In this document: positions 24,619 through 58,400 of the stretch, piece after piece
Numbering within the stretch: the stretch's first letter is position 1
Layout of the letters: each line of letters starts with the position of its first letter
Assembly: GCA_965250285.1 (NCBI GenBank)
Contig: OZ252299.1
Span: 704,001-768,000, forward strand
Source: Myxococcota bacterium
GTDB lineage: Bacteria; Myxococcota_A; UBA9160; UBA4427
DNA length: 64,000 bases
Direction: 5' to 3'
The notes under the pieces: model-generated
Seen by the model: the letters and a program-made list of their open reading frames with translations, nothing else
Told to the model about the DNA's origin: nothing
Database searches by the model: none
Program-made: the position numbers and the translations under genes

Positions 24619-27600
24619 ATGCCGACGATCACGCCGTCAAGTGTCGTCTGGTTATCACCCGGTGCGACGACGAATCGAGTAGAATCGGGGATCGTGGAGA
24701 GCACGAACGCCCCGCTGCGAGTCCGGAGCACGGCCCCCCTCGTCAATCGACAGCGCGAGTTCGCCTGGCTGACGGCGCACTGCGATGCCGCGGAGCGGGG
24801 TGTGCCCGGCGTGTGCCTGCTGCATGGGGACGCGGGGATCGGCAAGTCGCGTCTCGTTCGTGAGTTGGCCGCGCGTTCGCACGGGCGGTCGGCGCACGTC
24901 GGCATCGGTCGGGGGCACGAGTATCTCTCCGCACCCTATCTGCCGCTCGCCGAAGCCCTTCGCGAAGGGCCGGCCGCGGCCGCCGGGGCGCTGCTTCGGC
25001 CCGACCGGGTGTCTGCACCGAATCGCGCGGAGCGCGATGGCGAAGAAGAGCACGCGCGGGTGCAGCTCTTCACCTCGGTGGCCGCTGCGCTGATCGATGC
25101 CGCGGCCGAGCAACCGCTCGTGATCGTGCTCGAAGATCTGCACTGGGCCGACCCCTCGACGCTCGACCTGCTCGGGCATCTCGTGTTCGCTGCGGCCGAT
25201 GCGTCGGGCCTGCGCCCGGTCCATCTGCTCCTCGTGCTCACGTACCGCAGCAGCGAGCTGAGTGAGCGCTTGCGTCCCGGTCTGTCTCGAATCGCGCGCG
25301 AAGCCGTGAGCGAGAGCCTCGAGCTCGAAGGGCTCGACCAGGGGGACACCTCGCGACTGGTGGAGGCCCACGGCGTCGGGGTCGCTTCTCACCAGCTGGT
25401 CTCGGCCATTCAACGCGCGACCGAGGGCAATCCACTCTTCGTGGGCGAAGTGCTGCGCGAACTGGTGGCGGACGGTGGGGTGCAGCAGGTCGAGCGGTAT
25501 GCCGCGGTCACGCGCGAGCCCCAACTCCAGCTTCCCGCAGACGTGTCGAGCGCGATCTCGCGGCGGCTCACGACGCAGTCGTCCGAAGTGCGGCGAATGC
25601 TCGAACGCGCCGCCGTGATCGGCGAGTTGGTCGACGAGGCGTTGCTGCGGGCCACGGCGTCCGAAGAAGAGGGGGTGCTCGAGTCGGCGCTGCGCGAGGC
25701 GATCGACACGGGTTTTCTCGAGCGCGACGGGCGCACCTTGCGGTTCCAGCACGGGTTGCAGCGACGCGTCGTGCTCGAAGAGGCGGCCGCCGATCGCGTC
25801 GAGAAGCTGCATCGTCTGGTGGCCGAAGAGCTCGAATCTCGTCCGGTCGGCCACGATGATCCAGGGTTGGGCGTGGCGATCGCCGAGCATCTGTTTCGGG
25901 CGGGCACGCTGGCCCCTGTCGAGCAGCGCGTGCGTGCAGCGCGCCGCGCCGCCGACGACGCGGCGCGTGTCTTCGCGTGGGGCGAATCGGGTCGCTGGTA
26001 CGCCGCGGCCGCCGATGCGGCGCGCGGGATCCTCTCCGAGACCGAGGTGGCCGATCTCGACTACTCGGCGGGCCTCTCCTTCAACCACGACTGGGATGCC
26101 GGCCCGTGCCTCGCGCACTACGACCGTGCGCACGAGGCGTACGCACGGCGCCAGGATGCGCCCGGCATTGCACGCACGTTGAATCATCGTCTTCGCGCCA
26201 CGTTCACGTTCGGCGGGGCGTCCTACGGTGAGTCACTCGACCTCGAGCCGCTTCGCGAGGCCGTGGCTTCGCTCGGCGAGGGGGCGCCGGTCTTGCGAGG
26301 GATGGCCATGGCCACTCTCGCCGAGGCGCACTGGACGGCCCGCGAGACCGAAGCGTCGGTTCGGATGGCCGAGGCGGCGCTCGAGCTCGGCCGGCGTGAA
26401 GGCGACGCGCACTTGTCGCGCAATGCCAGCGTCGCGCTCGGTCTCGCTCGCGTGCAGCAGATGGACCTCGCGGGGGCCGTGCAGGCCTTTCTGGCCTCGC
26501 GCAGTCACGCCCGAACCGCGCGGGACCCCTGGCTGGCCATCGCGCCGATGGTGCGTGCGACGACGGCGCAGATTCAGCTGGGTCGGATCGCCGAGGCCGT
26601 CGCGGTCGGCGCCGAAGCACTCGCTGAAGGGCGTCGTATGCACGACGTGGCCGAGACCTCGATGTCGCTGTGCGATCACGCTCTACTCGCCGTGCTGCGG
26701 GGTCGCTTCAGTGAGGCCGAAGCCGTGGTGCGCGAGGCGATGATGCTGTCGTATCGCGCGCAGTACCCGTGGAGCGGCGTGCTCGGCCTCGCGACGCTCG
26801 CGGCTGCGCGGTGGCTGCGCGGGGAGACACTCGAGGCGGAGGACGCGCTGTCGGCGCTCGCCGAGCCCGGAGGCGCCTTCGAGGATCCGAGCCCGGCGAT
26901 CCTGATTCTGGTCGAGGTCTATCGCACGCTGCTGCGTCTCGGGCACAGGAGCATCGACGATGACGAGCGGGCTCGTCTCGGCGGACTGGCTCGCGCACTC
27001 GGCCTCGTCGGCCCCGACGCGAACGCGATCGGACCCCACTGCGCGATGGTCGAGATCGCCGCGTACTACCGGCTGCCGGAGCTCGTCGAGGTCGCGCGCC
27101 CGTTCCTCGAGCTGGCGGTCGAGCGCGGCGTCGTCTTCAGCAGCGGCTGGCCTTTCAGCGTCGAGCGTTCTCTGGCGCTCGCCGAGCGCCTCGTCGGGGA
27201 CGACGCGGGGGCCGAGCGTCATCTACGCCACGCCGCTTCGGAGATGGATCGCCTCGATGCGCGCCCCGAGCTCGGACGCAGTCTGGTCTCGCTGGCCGGT
27301 CTGTTGCTCGACCGTGGCGATGACGCGGGTCGGGCCGAGGCGCAGGTTCTGTGCGATCGCGCGCTCGCGCTGTTCGAATCGCTCGCGATGCCGACGCTCG
27401 CTGAAGAGGTGCTCGTGCTCGCGAAGGACGCCGAGCTCGACGTCTCGCCCGCTCCGTCGGCGCCGCGCTCGCCCGCGATCGATGCCGGGGACGTCGCGCG
27501 TCGAATGGCTCGCGGCGAAGACTTGAGCCGCATTGCCGGCAGCCTCATCCTGAGCCCGCGCTCGGCCAACGAGCATCTGCTTCGGGCGTTCACACCGCGG

Positions 27601-28179
27601 CCCGAGTCGGCGCGTGGCTTCACGCCGGCGGGGGTGCTCGCGAAGCTCGACGACACCGCGGCGGTCTCGCCCCGGGTGCTGACGATTCTGATCACCGACA
27701 TCGTCGGCTTTACTCCCCTGATCCACGGCCTGGGCGACGAGGTTGGGCACGCCGTCATCAAGGCGCACAACCGCATCGTGCGGGAGTGCTTGACGCGCCG
27801 AGACGGCGTCGAAGTGGCCCACACGGGCGATGGCTTGATGGTGTCGTTCGAGGCGCCTTCGAACGCGCTGCGCTGTGCGACCGAGATCCACCGCGCGTTC
27901 GCGGCGTATACCGCCGAGCACCCGGAGGCGCCCGTGCGCGTGCGCATTGGCATCCACCTGGGAGAAACGCGATCCGAAGAGCATCGTCTCTTCGGCACCG
28001 CGGTGAACATGGCCGCCCGCGTCTGCGCCTGCGCCGAAGCAGAAGAGATCATCGTGTCGAAGGCCGTGCGTGACGTCAACGAAGAACGCACTCGACGATT
28101 CGAGTCACGCGGAGAGGTCGAGCTGAAGGGCCTGCCCGGCCGCTACGAGCTCTTCGAGATGAAGTGGCGCAGCGATTGA
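24619..28179 (+). CDS. STAND (AAA_16) ATPase with TPR-like region, degenerate LuxR-type HTH and C-terminal class III nucleotide cyclase
   Basis: GDAGIGKS, VLEDLHWAD, EGNPLFV, ITDIVGFT...HTGDG...VNMAARV, ELKG. True start may be GTG near 24694. Confidence 0.88.
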   Translation: MPTITPSSVVWLSPGATTNRVESGIVESTNAPLRVRSTAPLVNRQREFAWLTAHCDAAERGVPGVCLLHGDAGIGKSRLVRELAARSHGRSAHVGIGRGHEYLSAPYLPLAEALREGPAAAAGALLRPDRVSAPNRAERDGEEEHARVQLFTSVAAALIDAAAEQPLVIVLEDLHWADPSTLDLLGHLVFAAADASGLRPVHLLLVLTYRSSELSERLRPGLSRIAREAVSESLELEGLDQGDTSRLVEAHGVGVASHQLVSAIQRATEGNPLFVGEVLRELVADGGVQQVERYAAVTREPQLQLPADVSSAISRRLTTQSSEVRRMLERAAVIGELVDEALLRATASEEEGVLESALREAIDTGFLERDGRTLRFQHGLQRRVVLEEAAADRVEKLHRLVAEELESRPVGHDDPGLGVAIAEHLFRAGTLAPVEQRVRAARRAADDAARVFAWGESGRWYAAAADAARGILSETEVADLDYSAGLSFNHDWDAGPCLAHYDRAHEAYARRQDAPGIARTLNHRLRATFTFGGASYGESLDLEPLREAVASLGEGAPVLRGMAMATLAEAHWTARETEASVRMAEAALELGRREGDAHLSRNASVALGLARVQQMDLAGAVQAFLASRSHARTARDPWLAIAPMVRATTAQIQLGRIAEAVAVGAEALAEGRRMHDVAETSMSLCDHALLAVLRGRFSEAEAVVREAMMLSYRAQYPWSGVLGLATLAAARWLRGETLEAEDALSALAEPGGAFEDPSPAILILVEVYRTLLRLGHRSIDDDERARLGGLARALGLVGPDANAIGPHCAMVEIAAYYRLPELVEVARPFLELAVERGVVFSSGWPFSVERSLALAERLVGDDAGAERHLRHAASEMDRLDARPELGRSLVSLAGLLLDRGDDAGRAEAQVLCDRALALFESLAMPTLAEEVLVLAKDAELDVSPAPSAPRSPAIDAGDVARRMARGEDLSRIAGSLILSPRSANEHLLRAFTPRPESARGFTPAGVLAKLDDTAAVSPRVLTILITDIVGFTPLIHGLGDEVGHAVIKAHNRIVRECLTRRDGVEVAHTGDGLMVSFEAPSNALRCATEIHRAFAAYTAEHPEAPVRVRIGIHLGETRSEEHRLFGTAVNMAARVCACAEAEEIIVSKAVRDVNEERTRRFESRGEVELKGLPGRYELFEMKWRSD

Positions 28180-28209: not shown

Positions 28210-29007
28210 ATGCCGACCGGAATGCCTGGCAACACCATGCGCGGACACGTGATCAAGCAGATCGAGCGGGTGATCAACAACTGTGGCGAAGACGCGCTCA
28301 AGATCCTGATCGAGGATTTGAGCACGCAGAAACAACCGATGGTCAAGATCCTGACCAACACGTACGGGGGGCAACGCGCTCTCGATCCGAGTAAGGAGAT
28401 CGACAAGTTCAACAAGCGGCACCTGCGAGTCGACTGGTTCGGTCGCCACCGAAAGCGCGACCCGAAAGACAAGGACAAGAAGATACCGGTGCCTCCCCAG
28501 GACTGGCGGGGGCGCTGGTGGCGAGGCACGACGCGGCGCACGGGGTATCAGCCGATCGATCCGATCGTCCGATTGGGGCTATGGACGACCTGCAAGCTCA
28601 AGCTGAAGCTCCAGGGTGAGAGCGAAGACGCGGTGCCCATTCATATGGTCTGGATATGCGCCGGCCACCACTTCGAGGTCCACTCGCTGCCGCAGTACCT
28701 GGTGGACTCTGACGGCAAGCGAGGGGCTGCTCACGGCATCTCCGTCCTCATCGTGACGCCGCATGAGGGTCTACCCCTCGAAGACGCCGGGATGTCCGAG
28801 GTCGGTTCCGACGTCAGTGCCGACATCGACGACGAGATCTACATCGTCCGCGGAACCCTCGTCGAGGACGACGAATCGAGAGCGGGATACGCGAGAATCG
28901 AGAAGTGGGAGGGGAGCGACGCAGTCCCCACCTACTACGACGATGCGGTTACGAAGCTTCCCCCCGCAGCGCTCTACAACCCGTTGAAGCAGCAGGATCC
29001 GTTCTAG
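28210..29007 (+). CDS. Hypothetical protein, paralog A (WICAGHHFE family)
   Basis: RBS ggag, typical codon usage, clear homology to the convergent neighbour. Confidence 0.85.
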   Translation: MPTGMPGNTMRGHVIKQIERVINNCGEDALKILIEDLSTQKQPMVKILTNTYGGQRALDPSKEIDKFNKRHLRVDWFGRHRKRDPKDKDKKIPVPPQDWRGRWWRGTTRRTGYQPIDPIVRLGLWTTCKLKLKLQGESEDAVPIHMVWICAGHHFEVHSLPQYLVDSDGKRGAAHGISVLIVTPHEGLPLEDAGMSEVGSDVSADIDDEIYIVRGTLVEDDESRAGYARIEKWEGSDAVPTYYDDAVTKLPPAALYNPLKQQDPF

Positions 29008-29011
29008 TCGG

Positions 29012-29758
29012 TCAGTCGATGGGGTCCGAGACCAGCGGGTTGTAGATTTCCGCGTCGTAGGCGGGCACGTTCACGCCTTCGACGTGTGGGGCGGCCTTGT
29101 ACCCGACGGCCTCAGGATCGGCGAGCTTCTGGCGGACGATCCAGATCGATTCGTCGACGTCGGGCCCGACCTCGACACCCGTCTCGGACATGCCCGCATC
29201 TTCGACGGGCATGCCTTCGTGGGGCGTGACGATGATCGTCGTGAGCGAGTGGACGACCTCCTTCTCACCCCCACTGCCGTCGTCGACCATCGTCTTCTGA
29301 CGGACGATGTGCGTTTCGAAGTGGTGGCCGGCACAGATCCACAACACTTGCACCGGCACCTTCTCGCTCTGCAGGCTCTCGTAGTGCCTTTTCAGGACGC
29401 ACGTCGTCCAGAAGCCCATCCGGACGACGGGATCGATGGGCTGATAGCCCGGTCGGCGGGTCGTGCCGCGCCACCAGCGTCCGCGCCAGTCCTTCGGGTC
29501 GATCGCGTCCCCGTTCGACCTCTTGTGCCGGCCGAACCAGTCGATGCGGAGGTGGCGAATGTTCCACTTGTCGGGGTCCTTGGTCTTGTCCAAGGCTCGC
29601 TGCCCGCCGTACAGATCCCTGAGGATGCGGATCATCGGCTTGCTCTGGTTGGACAGGTCGCCGATGAGCCCATCGATGTCGGTGGTCTTGTTGATCACGC
29701 GCTCGATCTGCTGGATCGCAAACCCGCGCATCGTGTTGCCAGGCATTCCGGTGGGCAT
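29012..29758 (-). CDS. Hypothetical protein, paralog B (WICAGHHFE family)
   Basis: Starts MPTGMPGNTMRG like paralog A. RBS aaggag before ATG 29758. Confidence 0.85.
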   Translation of the reverse strand: MPTGMPGNTMRGFAIQQIERVINKTTDIDGLIGDLSNQSKPMIRILRDLYGGQRALDKTKDPDKWNIRHLRIDWFGRHKRSNGDAIDPKDWRGRWWRGTTRRPGYQPIDPVVRMGFWTTCVLKRHYESLQSEKVPVQVLWICAGHHFETHIVRQKTMVDDGSGGEKEVVHSLTTIIVTPHEGMPVEDAGMSETGVEVGPDVDESIWIVRQKLADPEAVGYKAAPHVEGVNVPAYDAEIYNPLVSDPID

Positions 29759-37922: not shown

Positions 37923-39680
37923 TCAGCGCGCGCCGACTCGACCCCGAAGTAAGAATCCCACCGCCAGCATGGCGATCGAGAGCACCAGCAGCGCCGTCGT
38001 CCACGCGGACAGCGTGGGCACCGGTGCCCCTGTGAACGCGCTGCTCTCGATGATGCCCGTCGTGACGAACGTGGCCGACGACGCCAGCCCGAAGATGCGC
38101 GCTGCTGAAAGCGTTGGATCGGCGTTCACGGCGGCGGCGAGGGCGGCCGCGACGTCGGCATCGCTGTCGCCTGGTTGACGCGTCACGCTGACTTCGACGC
38201 CGTCGATCGTGACCGAGACGCCGAATGCACCCGGTGCGATCTCGAGCGCCTGGCTTGGATCGGCCAGCGGCAGCGGCCGAGCGAACACGACGTAGTTCGA
38301 GCCTGCGCCCGTCGCCTGGTTGCCTCCGAGCACGACGGTGCCGGCTGCGAAGTCGCGTCGAAGCACGCGGAACTCCTGCTCGGGCGAGGGGTCGGCGATG
38401 TCGACGATGTCGCTCGAGGGCGTGAAGCCGCCCGAGAGCCACGCAGGCTCGGCGGTCGCGCGCGTGTCGTAGGCCACGTAGACCGACGCATCCGACGCCA
38501 GTGCGAAGCTCAGGTGATTCGGGTTCGACACGTTCTTGTCGTCGTTCGCCGTGCGGATCCACTCCGAGCAGAGATAGGGCTCGGGGATGTCGACCAGCAC
38601 GTGTCGCCCTGCGTTGAGTCGGTCGGTGTAGTAGTGGTCACCGCCCTGCAGATTGGCCGTGACGTACGTCTCACCCGTCGACGTCACGACCCCTGAGATG
38701 AGGGGCACGACATTCGGGCACGCGCGCTCGCGCGCGACCACGAGCAGGTAGTCGAACGCCTCCTCTCGATGATCGCCGGTGAAGGCGTCGTCGCCGAAAC
38801 CGGTCACGGCGATCGTCCACGTGCCGTCCGCTGTGGCCGTGAAGAGCTGGTTCGCCATGCGGCCGGGCCCGCCGTCGTCGTTCACGCCGCCCGCGGCCAG
38901 CGCGTTCCACGGGTCGAAGACGCCCACGACCGCGTCGTTGCGCTCGCCGGCGGCGCTGGCGAACGATCCGTTCTGCAGGTCGAAGACCGAGATCGCGACG
39001 CGGTCGCCCGTCTCGAGCTCGATCCGGTAGTAGTCGACGTCGCCGACGGCCAGGGTTGCGCCGAGCACGCCGCCCGCCGTCGGCAAGGGCGTCGCTGCAA
39101 AGGGCGTGTCGTTGCCCTCGATCTCGACGAGCGCCGGATGATTGGGCGTCGCGGCTACGACCAGGCGATAGGGCACGAGGCCGCCCTTGGCCTCTTCGTG
39201 CTCACCGTCGAAGTCGTCGTCGCCGAAGCCGGTCACGCCGATCTGGTGTTCTCCGCTCGACGCGACGTTGAAGGCGAATCGCGAGAGGAACCCGCTCCCG
39301 CCGTCGTCGTCGCTGGCGAGTGCGGGGGTCGCACCGCCCGTGAAGATTCCGAGCTGCGTGTCGTTGCGCTCGCCGGCCGTGTCTTCGAAGAGGGCACCGA
39401 GCACGAGCAATCCCGAATCGAAGTCGAACGCATACGCATCGATGTCCCCGGCATCGAGTGACCCTCGAATCAGCTTCACGCCGGTTGGAAACGACGTCGC
39501 GAACTTCGCCTCGTCCCAGGGAACGGGGGCGGGGCTCGAGAGTGCGTTGACCTCGGTGTCGCTCGGATCCTGGAACGGGCTGTCTTCGTACTCGGTGAAG
39601 TCGGCATGAGACGCTGCAGCGAACGCGAGCGTGATCAGGCTGGCCGTGATGGTCCAGAGGCGGGGGCATCGGTTGCTCAT
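37923..39680 (-). CDS. Secreted protein with two PPC/DVUA0089-like domains and IPTL-CTERM signal
   Basis: Signal peptide, duplicated GD.D.Y...GERND..G.F...DDGG.G...VTGFGDD.F.G.H.E unit, tail APVPTLSAW-TM-RGR. Confidence 0.82.
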   Translation of the reverse strand: MSNRCPRLWTITASLITLAFAAASHADFTEYEDSPFQDPSDTEVNALSSPAPVPWDEAKFATSFPTGVKLIRGSLDAGDIDAYAFDFDSGLLVLGALFEDTAGERNDTQLGIFTGGATPALASDDDGGSGFLSRFAFNVASSGEHQIGVTGFGDDDFDGEHEEAKGGLVPYRLVVAATPNHPALVEIEGNDTPFAATPLPTAGGVLGATLAVGDVDYYRIELETGDRVAISVFDLQNGSFASAAGERNDAVVGVFDPWNALAAGGVNDDGGPGRMANQLFTATADGTWTIAVTGFGDDAFTGDHREEAFDYLLVVARERACPNVVPLISGVVTSTGETYVTANLQGGDHYYTDRLNAGRHVLVDIPEPYLCSEWIRTANDDKNVSNPNHLSFALASDASVYVAYDTRATAEPAWLSGGFTPSSDIVDIADPSPEQEFRVLRRDFAAGTVVLGGNQATGAGSNYVVFARPLPLADPSQALEIAPGAFGVSVTIDGVEVSVTRQPGDSDADVAAALAAAVNADPTLSAARIFGLASSATFVTTGIIESSAFTGAPVPTLSAWTTALLVLSIAMLAVGFLLRGRVGAR

Positions 39681-42043
39681 GACGAGATCTCCTCCTGGTC
39701 GCGAGACCAGGTCCAGACGTCGATCGGGGCGCTGCGGCCCTTCACACGAAGGGCGGGGTGGGCTTCGAAGTGGTCCGCCTCGTGCCCCGCGGCTCGGTGG
39801 GTGGCGTCGTCGGTGACGAGGGCGACGTCGAGCGTGCGCGTCGCCGCCTCGAGGCGGGCAGCCAGATTGGTCGTGTTGCCGAGAGCGACCCAGATCGAGC
39901 GGTCGGCGGTCGCCAGGGGGCCGACGTAGGCCGATCCAGTGGCAATCCCCAGACCGACGTCGAGCGTGTGGGGCGTGCCGTCCGATCGCTGCACGTCGAG
40001 GCCCGGGACGGCCTCGGCGATCCGCAGGGCGGCGCGAATCGCAGCCGAGGCCTTGTGGTCGAGTGGCCGCGGCGCGCCGAACACCGCCATCAACCCGTCG
40101 CCCTGAAACTCGACGACCGAGCCGCCGCACTCGTCGACGATCCCCGAGACGAGGTTGGTGTACTCACTGATCGCCGTGAAGATGTCGGCCGCGCGCTGCC
40201 CCTCGGCGAAGCTCGTGTAGCCGCGTACGTCGACGAAGAGCACGCTGACCTCGCGCTCGCCGGGCTCGAGAGACAGGCCGGCATCGAGCTCGCGAGCGAC
40301 GGCGCTCGGCACGAAGCGGCGCAGCTGGTCCGACAGCTGTCGCGTCTGCCGCTCGACGTCAGCGCGCTCGAACCGCGCCAGCTCGTCGCCCACCTTGTCC
40401 GCGAGGGCCAGCAGCAGCGCGATATCGGGGGTCGTGAAGACGTCGCCCGAGGCCTTGCCGCCGAGACACACGAACGCGGCCAGATCGTGGTGCAGCGAGA
40501 TCGGCAGAACGAGCTCGACGCCCATCGATTCGAGCGCCGCCCAGTCGGCGCGTTCGGGTGTGCTCGGTCGCACTCGCGCGGGCTCGAGGGGCTCGCGGGC
40601 GAGCTCGAGGCGCCCGACGAGCGGCCCATCGGGATCGAACGACGGCGAGATCGCGGCGCCGCGCGCGAAGACGGGCGCGAAGCCGCTCTCACTCCGCGCG
40701 TAGATCACCACCGTCTGCAGCCGCAGCAGGCCCCGCAAGCGCTCGCCCAGCGTCGTCAGGAGATCGGCCGGCTTCTCGCAGTCGGCGAGCAGGAGCCGAA
40801 CCAGCCCCGCTTCTTCTTCGAGCGCGCGGCGCTCGGGGTAGAGCCTTTGCTGGAGCGTCGTGTCGAGGCGGCGGAGCCCGAGGATCGCGCCGCCGCCGAG
40901 GCACAGCATCAGCACGGGCTGACTCACGGACGGGTCGATCACCGGCTCGGCGAGTGCCGTGACGGGCGGAACGACGACGAGGATCGCGGCGAGCGCGATC
41001 GTGCCCACCACCGAGTAGATCATCGCGGCCGTGAGCAGCCGGTGGACGTCGAACAGGTTGAAGCGCACCAGCGCGATGAAGAGACAGATCGGGATCGCCA
41101 GAACGAGCACGAGCGACGCTTCGTAGAGCCACCAGAGATCGGGAACGGCCACGGCGATGACCGAGGTGAGAATGACGGGGACGAGACCCACCCAGAAACC
41201 GAGCACGACCCATTTCAGCTGACGCCGACCGCTGGGCCCGCTCGCCCGGTAGTTCCACGTCACCAGCGCGACGAGCGTGGCGAGGAAGAGCAGGTTGATG
41301 GCCGTGGCACCCGCCTGGGCATGGGGCAGGGCGCGCGGCCAGCCGAAGGCCCAGACGAGAAAGGCCGGACCCATCACGAGAAACAGCCACGGCCACCACC
41401 GAGCGGGGCCGGCCGGGGGGACGATCTCGGCGGGGAACGCCTGGAAGGCCCGCAAGGCGAGCGGTGCGGTCAACGCGGTCGCCAGCCCGAACGATACGAT
41501 CGCCGCGACCGTGACCCACGCCGGCCCGCCCCAGAAGTCGGTCCAGTGAAACGCGTAGGCCATCATGGCGAGATAGAAGATGCGCCCATGCAGCGACCCA
41601 CGCGTGCGCCAGAACGCCAGCGAGCCGAGCAGGGCGAACGCCGCCGCCACCAGCGACTTGCGCCAGGCTGACGCGATCGGCTGCAGCTCGAGCGAGGCGC
41701 CGAACCGAGCGTGGCCGCGCCGGGCGACCACGTCGATCGGCGCATCCTGGGGCCCGGCATAGATCCGCGTCAGCACCTCCATCGACCCGGCGCCGAGCAG
41801 ATCCTTTCCGTGGACCGACTCGATCTCATCCCCGGGCGCGAGCGCGGGGGCCAGATCCTCTGTGCCCGGCCAGAACCGCAGGAGCGTCGGGTAGGTGTCT
41901 TCCGACGCCGCGGCGCTCACGTAGACGGGGATCCACGCCAGCCCACCTCGCACCACCTGGTTGGCGTGGAGGACGAAGCACACGCTCCACGTGCCCGTCA
42001 GCGCGACGAGTAGGAGCGTGTCGAGTCGGCGGATCCCTTCCAA
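39677..42043 (-). CDS. Membrane class III nucleotide cyclase (PDZ-like, multi-TM, GAF-like, cyclase)
   Basis: VLFVDVRGYT, EFQGDGLMAVFGAP, GNTTNLAARLE, VKGR. Confidence 0.9.
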   Translation of the reverse strand: MEGIRRLDTLLLVALTGTWSVCFVLHANQVVRGGLAWIPVYVSAAASEDTYPTLLRFWPGTEDLAPALAPGDEIESVHGKDLLGAGSMEVLTRIYAGPQDAPIDVVARRGHARFGASLELQPIASAWRKSLVAAAFALLGSLAFWRTRGSLHGRIFYLAMMAYAFHWTDFWGGPAWVTVAAIVSFGLATALTAPLALRAFQAFPAEIVPPAGPARWWPWLFLVMGPAFLVWAFGWPRALPHAQAGATAINLLFLATLVALVTWNYRASGPSGRRQLKWVVLGFWVGLVPVILTSVIAVAVPDLWWLYEASLVLVLAIPICLFIALVRFNLFDVHRLLTAAMIYSVVGTIALAAILVVVPPVTALAEPVIDPSVSQPVLMLCLGGGAILGLRRLDTTLQQRLYPERRALEEEAGLVRLLLADCEKPADLLTTLGERLRGLLRLQTVVIYARSESGFAPVFARGAAISPSFDPDGPLVGRLELAREPLEPARVRPSTPERADWAALESMGVELVLPISLHHDLAAFVCLGGKASGDVFTTPDIALLLALADKVGDELARFERADVERQTRQLSDQLRRFVPSAVARELDAGLSLEPGEREVSVLFVDVRGYTSFAEGQRAADIFTAISEYTNLVSGIVDECGGSVVEFQGDGLMAVFGAPRPLDHKASAAIRAALRIAEAVPGLDVQRSDGTPHTLDVGLGIATGSAYVGPLATADRSIWVALGNTTNLAARLEAATRTLDVALVTDDATHRAAGHEADHFEAHPALRVKGRSAPIDVWTWSRDQEEISS

Positions 42044-55459: not shown

Positions 55460-58400
55460 ATGAGCACCGCATGTCCGTCCTGCGGCCAGGAGAATGCCGA
55501 CGACGCCCGAGTGTGCACCGGTTGCGGGGCAACGCTCGGTGTCCCGTGCCGTCAGTGCGGGGCGATCATGTCGCCGACCGCCAAGTTCTGCTCCGAGTGC
55601 GGCGCGGCTGCGCAGCCCGTGGTCGAAGAGGGTGAGCGCCGACACCTGACGGTGCTCTTCGCCGATCTCGCCGGCTCGACTTCGATCGCCGAACGCCTCG
55701 ATCCCGAAGATTGGCGCGACACGGTCGTGCGCTTCCAGCAGGAGGCGGTGCGGGTCATCGAGCAGGCCGGAGGCTACGTCGCGCAGTATCTCGGCGACGG
55801 GCTTCTCGTCTACTTCGGATACCCCCGCGCAAGTGAGAACGACGCCGAGCGTGCGGTGCGCTGCGGCCTCGAACTCGTCGAAGCGACGCGGGCCCTGAAT
55901 CCCGAGCTGCAGTCGGCCCACGACGTCCAGCTCAGCCTGCGCGTCGGTGTGCATTCGGGGCCGGTCGTCGTGAGTGAGGTCGGCGGCACCCGGCGCGAGA
56001 CGCTGGCGCTCGGCAAGACGGCGAACCTGGCGGCGCGCGTGCAGTCTGCCGCGAAGCCGAACACCGCGTACGTGACGCAGGCGACGCTTCGTCGGATCGC
56101 CCCGATCTTCGTGACGCACGATGTGGGCGAGTTCGAGCTGAAGGGCATCGAGCGCCCGGTTCGCCTCCACGAAGTGCTGCATCCGAGTGAGTCGCGCGGA
56201 CGATTCGCGGCGCCTGGTCACGCGCTCACGCCCTTCGTCGGGCGCCAGCGTGAGCTCGACGAGCTCGAAGATCGCTTTGCGCGTGCGCATGCAGGGCAGG
56301 GCCAGCTACTGACGATTCGAGGCGAGGCCGGGATCGGCAAGTCTCGACTCGCGCATGCGTTCGAGCGATCGCTTCCGGTGGACGCGCACGCCTGGCACGA
56401 GTGCCAGGGTGCTGCGTACAACCGCGACAGCCCGCTGCAGCCGTGGCTGCATCTGCAACGCGATCTACTCGGCATCGGCGCGGCCTCGACCGATGAAGCC
56501 AAGGTCGCCGCCCTCGAGACCGCGCTGGGCGAAGCCGGGCTCGATCTCGACGAGGCCGTTCCGCTCTTCGCTGCGGCACACGGTCTTGCGCTGCCTGATC
56601 GCTACACGCTGCCCGATGTGAGCCCACTCGGCTTGCGCAAGCGCACCCTCGCGCTCATGGCCGACTGGCTGATTCGGCTCGGGCGCGATCAGACCGTCGT
56701 GCTGCTCGTGGAGGACTTGCACTGGTTGGATCCGTCCTCGGTCGAGCTGATCGGGCAACTCACCGATCGCATCGGCGAAGCGCGTCTCCTCGTCCTGCTC
56801 ACACAGCGTCCGGAGTTCGAGCCGCCGTGGCAGGAGGGCCCCTCGGTCTCGAGCATCGCGCTCGAACGTCTGTCGACGAACGAGCTGCACGAGCTGATCG
56901 CTCACGCATCCGACGAGTCGCCGCTCGGGGACGATTGGGTCGAGGCCATCCACAATCGCTCGGACGGCGTGCCGCTCTTCGCCGAGGAGCTGGCCCGGGC
57001 GGCCGCGCAGAGCACTGACGCGTCGGGTGGCGCAGCCTCGGCGCAGAGCGTGCCCGAGACCCTGGAAGACCTCTTGATGTCGCGCCTCGAGCGGATGGAC
57101 GACGTGAAGACGGTGGCCCAGCTCGCATCGGTGCTCGGTCGCGAGTTTCCGATCGGGCTGCTCGAGCCCCTCTGGCGGGGTGAGCGTGCAACGCTGCGCT
57201 CCGGCCTGGAGGCGGCCGAGCGCGCGCGCATTCTCACGCGCGTCGAGGGGGCGCACGAAGACCGCTATGCGTTTCACCACGCGCTCATTCGAGACGCGGC
57301 CTACGGCTCGATGTTGCGGCGCACCCGGCGACGGCACCATCAGGCCGTGGCGACGGCGCTGCGCGAGCACTTCCCCGACCGGGTCGCCGAACAGCCCGAG
57401 CTGCTCGCGCACCACCTGACCGAAGCCCAGGCGATCGATGCCGCGATCGAAGCCTGGCGCGAGGCCGGTGCGCTCGCGCTCGGTGGGGCGGCCTACGAAG
57501 AAGCCATTCGCCATCTTCGGCGCGCGCGCACGCTGCTGCACGATCACCCCGACGATGTGCGCAACCTCGACGTGGTGCAAATGCTCGCGGGCGTCCTGCT
57601 CGCGGAGCGCGGCTGGGCGCACGAAGAGACACACGAAGCCTGGGAGGCCGCGGCCGCGCTCTGCGATGCAGACAAGGAGCCGCTGCGGGCAGGCGCGATC
57701 GCCTGCGGGCTCGGTGATGCGTACTCGTCGCAGGATCTCGGCAAATCGCTCGACCACTTCGTCGCGCTGGCCGATCGCGGTCGCACGCGGGAGCTGCCCT
57801 TGCTCACGATCGCGGGCCATCAAGGGGCCGCGATTCCGCTCCGCTACCTCGGTCGCTACGCAGAGGCGCGCGGACACCTCGACCGCGGGCTGGCGACCTA
57901 CGACGTCGATCGGCATCGCTTCGTCGATGCCGGGTTTCATGAGGAGAAGGGCATCAGCCTGCTGCTCTGGTCGGCGTGGGTGCACTGGGATGTCGGCGAC
58001 CTCGATCGCGCACGTGAGGACGCTCGACGCGCGGGCGAGCTCGCGGATGCGCTCGACAGCCCCTTCGCGCGCGCCTTTGCCGATTCGTGGGGCTCGGGTG
58101 TCGAGGTCTTCTCGGGCAATTGGCCGCAAGCGCTCGAACTGGGCGCGCGTGCTGCGAAGCTCGCTGCCGATCACGGGTTCCTGCTGCTCGAGGCCATGGG
58201 GCGCTTCGCTGAGCTTGCATCGCGCGGCGTGCTCGAGGATCTGAACGAGGCGCCCGACCTCTATCGCATCGAAATCGGCCGACTCGCGGCCACAGGCAAC
58301 CAGCTCGGTGGCGCCGAGGTCTTCGCAATTCTGGCGCGACTCGAGCTCGAGATGGGGCTGAACGACCAGGCTCTTGCCACTGTCGATGTCGGGCTCGGTC

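Follow-up and report, generated by a model that had tools for sequence, protein, structure and literature searches.

Gene content of the locus

The window analysed here, a 64,000-nucleotide stretch of contig OZ252299.1 from a Myxococcota bacterium, carries a gene for a MalT-type STAND protein followed by two related genes, which we refer to as copies A and B (Table 1). As a sequence-only reading of this DNA had described, two intact, convergent reading frames have stop codons separated by 4 nt, and A starts 30 nt past the stop of the STAND-cyclase gene (28179), with which it is likely co-transcribed. The sequence blocks said to be common to A and B are indeed present, and in a 262-column alignment the two proteins are 52% identical (E 2e-93). 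One study supplied three DNA runs, one of which may come from the source sample, with contigs that span the STAND/A and A/B junctions with zero differences; no RNA run was listed as containing the locus. No further copies were found in the 6.25-Mb genome. The GC3 of A and B (0.82 and 0.89) is like that of neighbouring genes, so a local dip in GC is no sign of foreign origin. The hydropathy of A peaks at 0.87 over 19 residues, and the protein is without a membrane helix.

Selection on both copies, also claimed earlier, is upheld, as purifying selection, by an NG86 estimate over 244 codons (dN 0.38, dS 0.96, dN/dS 0.40, away from 1), in which dS is near saturation given that 26 of 48 four-fold sites differ between A and B. 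In a quick tree built from 47 rows (45 of 148 family members plus 2), A and B are sisters (SH-aLRT 91) within a four-member clade (SH-aLRT 98), which points to a local duplication; with a single copy in most genomes, the idea of an obligate pair is not sustained. The sigma-54 box suggested for B reduces to a minimal GG-N10-GC spacing that occurs twice upstream of the gene, a region in which no TGGCAC-type sigma-54 match was found; a search for sigma-70 sites found none.

Table 1 Features of the locus, with domain positions of the STAND protein given as residues.
Feature	Position	Strand	Description
MalT-type STAND	24619..28179	+	1186 aa; AAA_16-TPR-HTH-cyclase
AAA_16 NTPase of STAND	residues 41-189		Pfam AAA_16, E 7e-25
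TPR sensor of STAND	residues about 405-940		
Degenerate LuxR-like helix-turn-helix of STAND	residues about 955-1000		alignment to GerE-positive L007 homologue
Class III nucleotide cyclase of STAND	residues 1021-1177		Pfam Guanylate_cyc, E 6e-16
Copy A	28210-29007	+	265 aa; AGGAG ribosome site; new STAND-partner family
Copy B	29012-29758	-	248 aa; convergent paralog of A; GAAGGAG ribosome site; own upstream region
PDZ-like/membrane/GAF/class III cyclase receptor	39677..42043	-	about 10 kb away

The gene upstream of A shows the hallmarks of a MalT-type STAND, namely an AAA_16 domain with Walker A/B motifs, helical domains and then a TPR sensor. Its motif columns are intact both for Walker A/B and for the cyclase catalytic D, D, N and R. 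The cyclase stretch (27670-28176, + strand) matches the NCBIfam LipJ cyclase at E 4e-34, far under that model's cut-off. Canonical adenylyl cyclases select adenine with a Lys and an Asp; in the window these base-selecting residues are replaced by A and R, and the positions are variable among relatives (A/Q/D/E and R/K, from six other cyclase-bearing rows). Judging from these residues, the cyclase is likely active, and a product other than cAMP is possible. Searched against the 2023 PADLOC library, the STAND gave only partial matches to PycC, CARF and mad8. The window holds a second strong AAA_16 STAND gene at about 56231-56794 (+), in an open frame of 1089 aa, which has no adjoining family member.

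The PDZ-like receptor in the window is 35% identical over about 780 aa to genes that are convergent with family members in two other genomes (G061 and G043), and this type of receptor has no non-cyclase domain in common with the STANDs. The same genome encodes a second full-length homologue of it about 55 kb off (G000:C1:687763-690078).

An unnamed family of soluble proteins

Neither A nor B matched any family in Pfam, NCBIfam or PADLOC. A 12-sequence profile searched against 1.84 billion sequences recovered a family of 741 cluster representatives at 50% identity (E ≤ 0.001) with a median length of about 200 aa, and the best 150 of these representatives were drawn on for family analyses. Word-indexed protein searches returned only 4, 4 and 12 matches, and alone would have led to an underestimate of the family's size. 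Across 136 members there were two weak single-member matches in Pfam (DUF4242 gave none), one in NCBIfam and none in PADLOC, 148 members gave no match to PHROGs, and a PDB sequence search with the family found nothing under E 0.02. The earlier view of A and B as members of an unrecognised family thus stands for all of these collections. Among the papers listed by literature searches, mostly from outside subscription journals, no title or opening of an abstract describes the family.

The distribution of the family is patchy. In the order to which the window belongs, at least 14 of 193 genomes have a member; a sample of 301 genomes from the phylum gave at least 9, and one gammaproteobacterial family at least 6 of 201, these counts being lower bounds because a limited number of candidates was scored per genome. 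None of 250 other genomes sampled from the order of G193, a genome with two members, was matched, and a first scan of genome contigs gave no family match. A search of viral contigs with A found none; the sole profile match among them, on L018, was rejected as motif-only similarity within a phage-tail region. Three members depart from the usual architecture (P0032, P0039 and P0058): one is a tandem domain duplication in a single chain of 351 aa, and in two the domain is interrupted by an insertion of about 90 aa.

Conservation centres on one histidine and several aromatic residues. In 160 sequences near the seed profile, a set biased toward the CAG motif, conservation is high at Met5, Lys11, Gly12, a His, three Trp, an Arg, a Cys and a Thr-Pro pair. 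In A numbering, His71 is kept in all 19 genome-derived members that adjoin a STAND, Trp148 and Thr183 in 18 each and Trp104 in 15; His71 is replaced by Tyr in 16 of 148 members. The Cys/His/His/Glu cluster that had been put forward as metal-binding or catalytic fares poorly in the same 19 members (Cys150 in 9, His153 in 0, His154 in 7 and Glu156 in 9). Nor does the proposal that a Trp/Arg block binds nucleic acid hold up, as RWWRG occurs in only 4 of 148 members and the family's median pI is 6.0, with a pI above 8 in 9% of the 148. TPHEG likewise occurs in 4 of 148, and the proposed catalytic and nucleic-acid-binding motifs are thus features of the small A/B clade. Mutual information mostly reflects a conservation artefact; the Met5-Cys150 pair reaches z 5.9, and its covariation may be of phylogenetic origin. 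In P0007, which is 82% identical to P0006, the CAGSH motif has lost its Cys, Gly and His, a further sign that this motif is dispensable unless a sequencing error is responsible.

AlphaFold2 models of copy B (pLDDT 81.6, pTM 0.84) and of a second family sequence (pLDDT 82.1, pTM 0.82) both show an alpha+beta arrangement of a short strand, four helices, a Trp-Trp loop, a long helix and a sheet. Foldseek found no match at E ≤ 0.001 for the two models in the PDB, and none among viral structures; the best rows of a fold search had Z of 3.9 and 4.8, below the tool's trust level of 8; the absence of a fold match does not prove a new fold. The nearest likeness is to the ligand-binding FCD domain of GntR regulators (Z 4.8, rmsd 3.4 over 106 residues, for the P0040 model, residues 3-135). 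FCD folds as a helical bundle, whereas the family models have a sheet of 3-6 strands, and identity is 4-15% with Z under 8. A complex prediction for A (148 rows) with STAND residues 405-940, which covered the TPR region (25 rows), returned 0.00, a "no answer".

Genomic linkage to STAND-TPR genes

We compared the neighbourhoods of 31 members outside the window for which DNA was at hand, all recovered by the family profile; one locus was first fetched through its STAND and later recovered independently by the profile, and some of the loci are close kin. A MalT-type STAND-TPR gene adjoins the member, at gaps of -8 to 140 nt, in 24 of the 31, including L008, where the contig is cut and only the cyclase end is visible, and the linkage of homologs to STAND genes that the sequence-only reading had anticipated is therefore confirmed. 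At three loci the adjoining gene encodes a PDZ-like/membrane/GAF receptor, which carries a cyclase in G061 and G043 but not in L011. Neither receptor type is found at the remaining four, which are G020, a second copy in G193 that lies 20 kb away from the other, a weak match in G168 and the 1.7-kb L010. Counting copy A, 20 of the 28 adjacencies are downstream and co-oriented (gaps of -8 to 195 nt), and the others are convergent (4), divergent (3) or upstream (1). Five families of the window's class show the linkage, as do one gammaproteobacterial family and metagenome contigs. Genomes carry 2-6 strong AAA_16 genes (>70 bits), and adjacency to one of these by chance is estimated at roughly 0.2% per gene, assuming about 5,500 genes. 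G027 has two STANDs of the partner type, each with its own family member.

What stays constant in the partner STANDs is the NTPase and TPR part, and the output domain varies. Among 24 with a visible C-terminus (window included), 8 have a cyclase and 16 show none; other outputs are a Ser/Thr kinase in three by Pfam and in a fourth by inspection, a TIR domain in one, and other or no domains in the rest. TPR_MalT matches, below cut-off, occur in four partner STANDs. With no cyclase seen in 16 partners, the earlier suggestion of a cyclase-dependent effector is not supported, and a constant receptor beside the family combined with a variable output argues against an effector activated by cyclic nucleotide and in favour of an input-side role.

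The converse relationship is looser. A profile of the TPR region searched within the order gave 14 matches above 340 bits, all others scoring under 163, a separation that is partly circular, as 11 of the 14 had built the profile. Two of four held-out high scorers lie on contigs that end at the STAND; the informative two, in G144 and G145, have no family member nearby and are each faced by a GAF-sigma54 activator gene, so the partner is not obligatory. No member was found within the 1.5-kb flanks of 17 low-scoring STAND loci. The family is thus almost always accompanied by a receptor gene, and the STAND is not always accompanied by the family. Mantel tests of member against STAND pairwise identity gave no correlation (rho -0.2 to 0.08, p 0.3-0.9), at a power kept low by the 12-29% identity between A/B and the tested members.

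Several loci show arrangements of their own. STANDs of the partner TPR class lie beside GAF-sigma54 genes in G144, G145 and G027 (L103:5077-10541, L104:1-3832 and L044:6998-12342), and the partner family is absent in two of these three. In G193 (L013:3323-13578 and L017:7020-10515), one member follows genes for a Tle1-like hydrolase, a 610-aa membrane protein without annotation, an Ig-like protein and a lipase-like protein, and faces a TIR-STAND; the other precedes a metallo-beta-lactamase-fold hydrolase, and the context is like that of a conflict island. A weak, His-less member in G168 (L072:2388-5640) lies downstream of a gene that we take, by eye from a motif, to be TIR/DUF4062-like. G639 and G609 (L064:7484-14035 and L066:897-7434) each have a head-to-head pair of STANDs of this TPR class, one of which is followed by a family member. 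Decay is seen in G433, where the member is frameshifted, and in G614, where the STAND is split across two frames (L067:7291-7829 and L065:7694-10967).

A possible input role and its alternatives

The explanation that we favour for these observations, at a probability of about 0.45, is that A, B and their relatives are dedicated accessory input subunits that bind a ligand or cofactor and gate the STAND switch. Beyond gene linkage the steps are inferred. A pocket would form around the near-invariant His71 with Trp76, Trp104, Trp148 and Thr183-Pro184, the conserved MPGxxxKG segment at the N-terminus might close it, and a ligand-dependent contact would keep the STAND in its ADP-bound resting state or free it, as MalY does for MalT. 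In the window the C-terminal cyclase would deliver the output by making a cyclic nucleotide, with A as a co-transcribed partner and B as a separately regulated second input. Linkage at 24 of 31 loci that survives inversion suggests such a role, as does conservation focused on one His and aromatics with no multi-residue catalytic set. The three loci at which the neighbour is instead a PDZ-membrane-GAF receptor, with or without a cyclase, suggest it too, as pairing with different receptor types is known from stand-alone sensor proteins. Against it stand the STANDs of G144 and G145, the four members with no receptor beside them, the lack of a member-STAND identity correlation and the Tyr found in place of His71 in 16 of 148 members. 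The PDZ-membrane-GAF receptor, with no non-cyclase domain in common with the STANDs, is as compatible with a diffusible signal as with direct binding. That a separate protein can keep a STAND inactive has a precedent in MalT and MalY (PMC10427625).

A more specific version of the input role, which we consider unlikely, is that the family is a new-fold, stand-alone haem or metal sensor with a His ligand that feeds both a whole subfamily of NLR-like STAND switches and membrane cyclases. The exchange of His for Tyr and the conserved Met5 and Cys150 have the look of haem ligands and are what raises this reading. His71 would be one ligand and Met5 or Cys150 an exchangeable second, the role would be H-NOX-like, and the duplication in the window would give one switch two inputs.

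Alternatively, the family may be an enzyme that makes, modifies or destroys a small molecule sensed by the receptors, following a synthase-receptor logic of the LuxI/LuxR kind; we regard this as unlikely. Pairing of the family with two unrelated receptor types speaks for it. His71, Asp19, Arg121 and Thr183 are conserved polar residues, and the convergent and divergent layouts need no co-translation. However, the 19 genome-derived members have a single invariant polar residue, with the same Tyr exchange elsewhere in the family, and no biosynthetic or transport gene recurred among the neighbourhoods inspected.

We consider it rather improbable that, in line with the sequence-only reading, the family acts as a downstream effector in an NLR-like module for signalling or defence, with a cyclic nucleotide or a STAND oligomer as its trigger. 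Its position directly downstream of the STAND at most loci, its patchy distribution (14 of 193 genomes of the order), the one TIR-STAND partner and the lipase-, MBL-hydrolase- or TIR-like genes near the G193 and G168 members are all compatible with such a role. Yet 16 of 24 partner STANDs show no cyclase and most have an output domain of their own, PADLOC matched 0 of 136 members, the family has no nuclease-like acidic cluster and shows membrane-like hydropathy in only 5 of 148 members, and the genes around the window pair are metabolic and signalling genes.

We are more doubtful still that the protein is a ligand or guarded bait, the loss, cleavage or modification of which would trip a STAND that monitors it through its TPR region. 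The TPR profile sets the partner-linked STANDs apart (>340 vs <163 bits), and the N-terminal MPG segment is conserved yet modelled with low confidence, as binding peptides often are; on the other hand, that separation is partly circular, both informative held-out high scorers are without the gene, and the membrane-receptor loci would be left unexplained. That the gene is simply carried along in a block of signalling genes, with no functional tie, might account for the four orphan loci and the absent distance correlation (Mantel), but it is very improbable in view of immediate adjacency in four orientations, in distant lineages and with differing flanks, against roughly 0.2% by chance.

The family is real, under selection, unnamed and linked to STANDs, and a regulated STAND switch is a known kind of system. 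We know of no activating input for most bacterial STAND-TPR proteins. A large, unnamed family of soluble proteins of about 200 aa that marks one STAND subfamily across cyclase, kinase and TIR outputs offers a direct handle on that input, and the cyclase offers a read-out for the window pair. A cofactor sensor, if the family proves to be one, would be a new route for signal entry into NLR-like switches.

Comparison with known systems

Avs proteins are antiviral STANDs, and Pycsar systems pair a cyclase with a cNMP-binding TIR or membrane effector. The window gene shares a STAND-TPR core with Avs, but it has no match to an Avs model in the 2023 PADLOC library. It resembles Pycsar in its class III cyclase and a weak PycC similarity (E 1e-7, for part of that model), but neither A, B nor the 136 members gave a match to a cNMP-binding domain, and most partner STANDs show no cyclase. 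Mycobacterial cyclase-STAND-HTH proteins of the Rv0386 type and SWACOS-type STAND cyclases join a class III cyclase, AAA_16 and TPR in a single polypeptide, as the window STAND does. Its cyclase differs in being C-terminal, in having LipJ as its nearest NCBIfam stretch and in its non-canonical base-selecting residues, and the libraries searched held no such partner family for these STAND cyclases. In vWA-MoxR ternary conflict systems, one operon encodes a MoxR ATPase, a vWA protein and a VMAP or inactive STAND (PMC7159879). STANDs adjoining our family keep their Walker A/B motifs, and no MoxR-vWA pair was found beside the window genes or among annotated flanking genes.

Closer parallels exist among sensors and STAND inhibitors. 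H-NOX (about 200 aa) and NosP are soluble stand-alone sensors with a conserved His that occur beside varied signalling outputs. The family resembles them in its length of about 200 aa, solubility, varied output neighbours and conserved His, but its 136 members gave no H-NOX or FIST match in Pfam, and these folds were absent among the listed fold-search rows. E. coli MalT is inhibited by Aes and MalK as well as by MalY, the last a moonlighting enzyme of known fold that is encoded elsewhere. Common to that system and the window are a MalT-type STAND and its TPR sensor; control by a separate protein, which for MalT blocks oligomerisation (PMC10427625), would be shared as well. By contrast, the partner in the window is an alpha+beta protein unmatched in fold and encoded next door, and outputs across the family's loci are a cyclase, a kinase or TIR. 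Judged by sequence a member of neither group, the family would appear to work like MalT-MalY or like sensors of the H-NOX kind.
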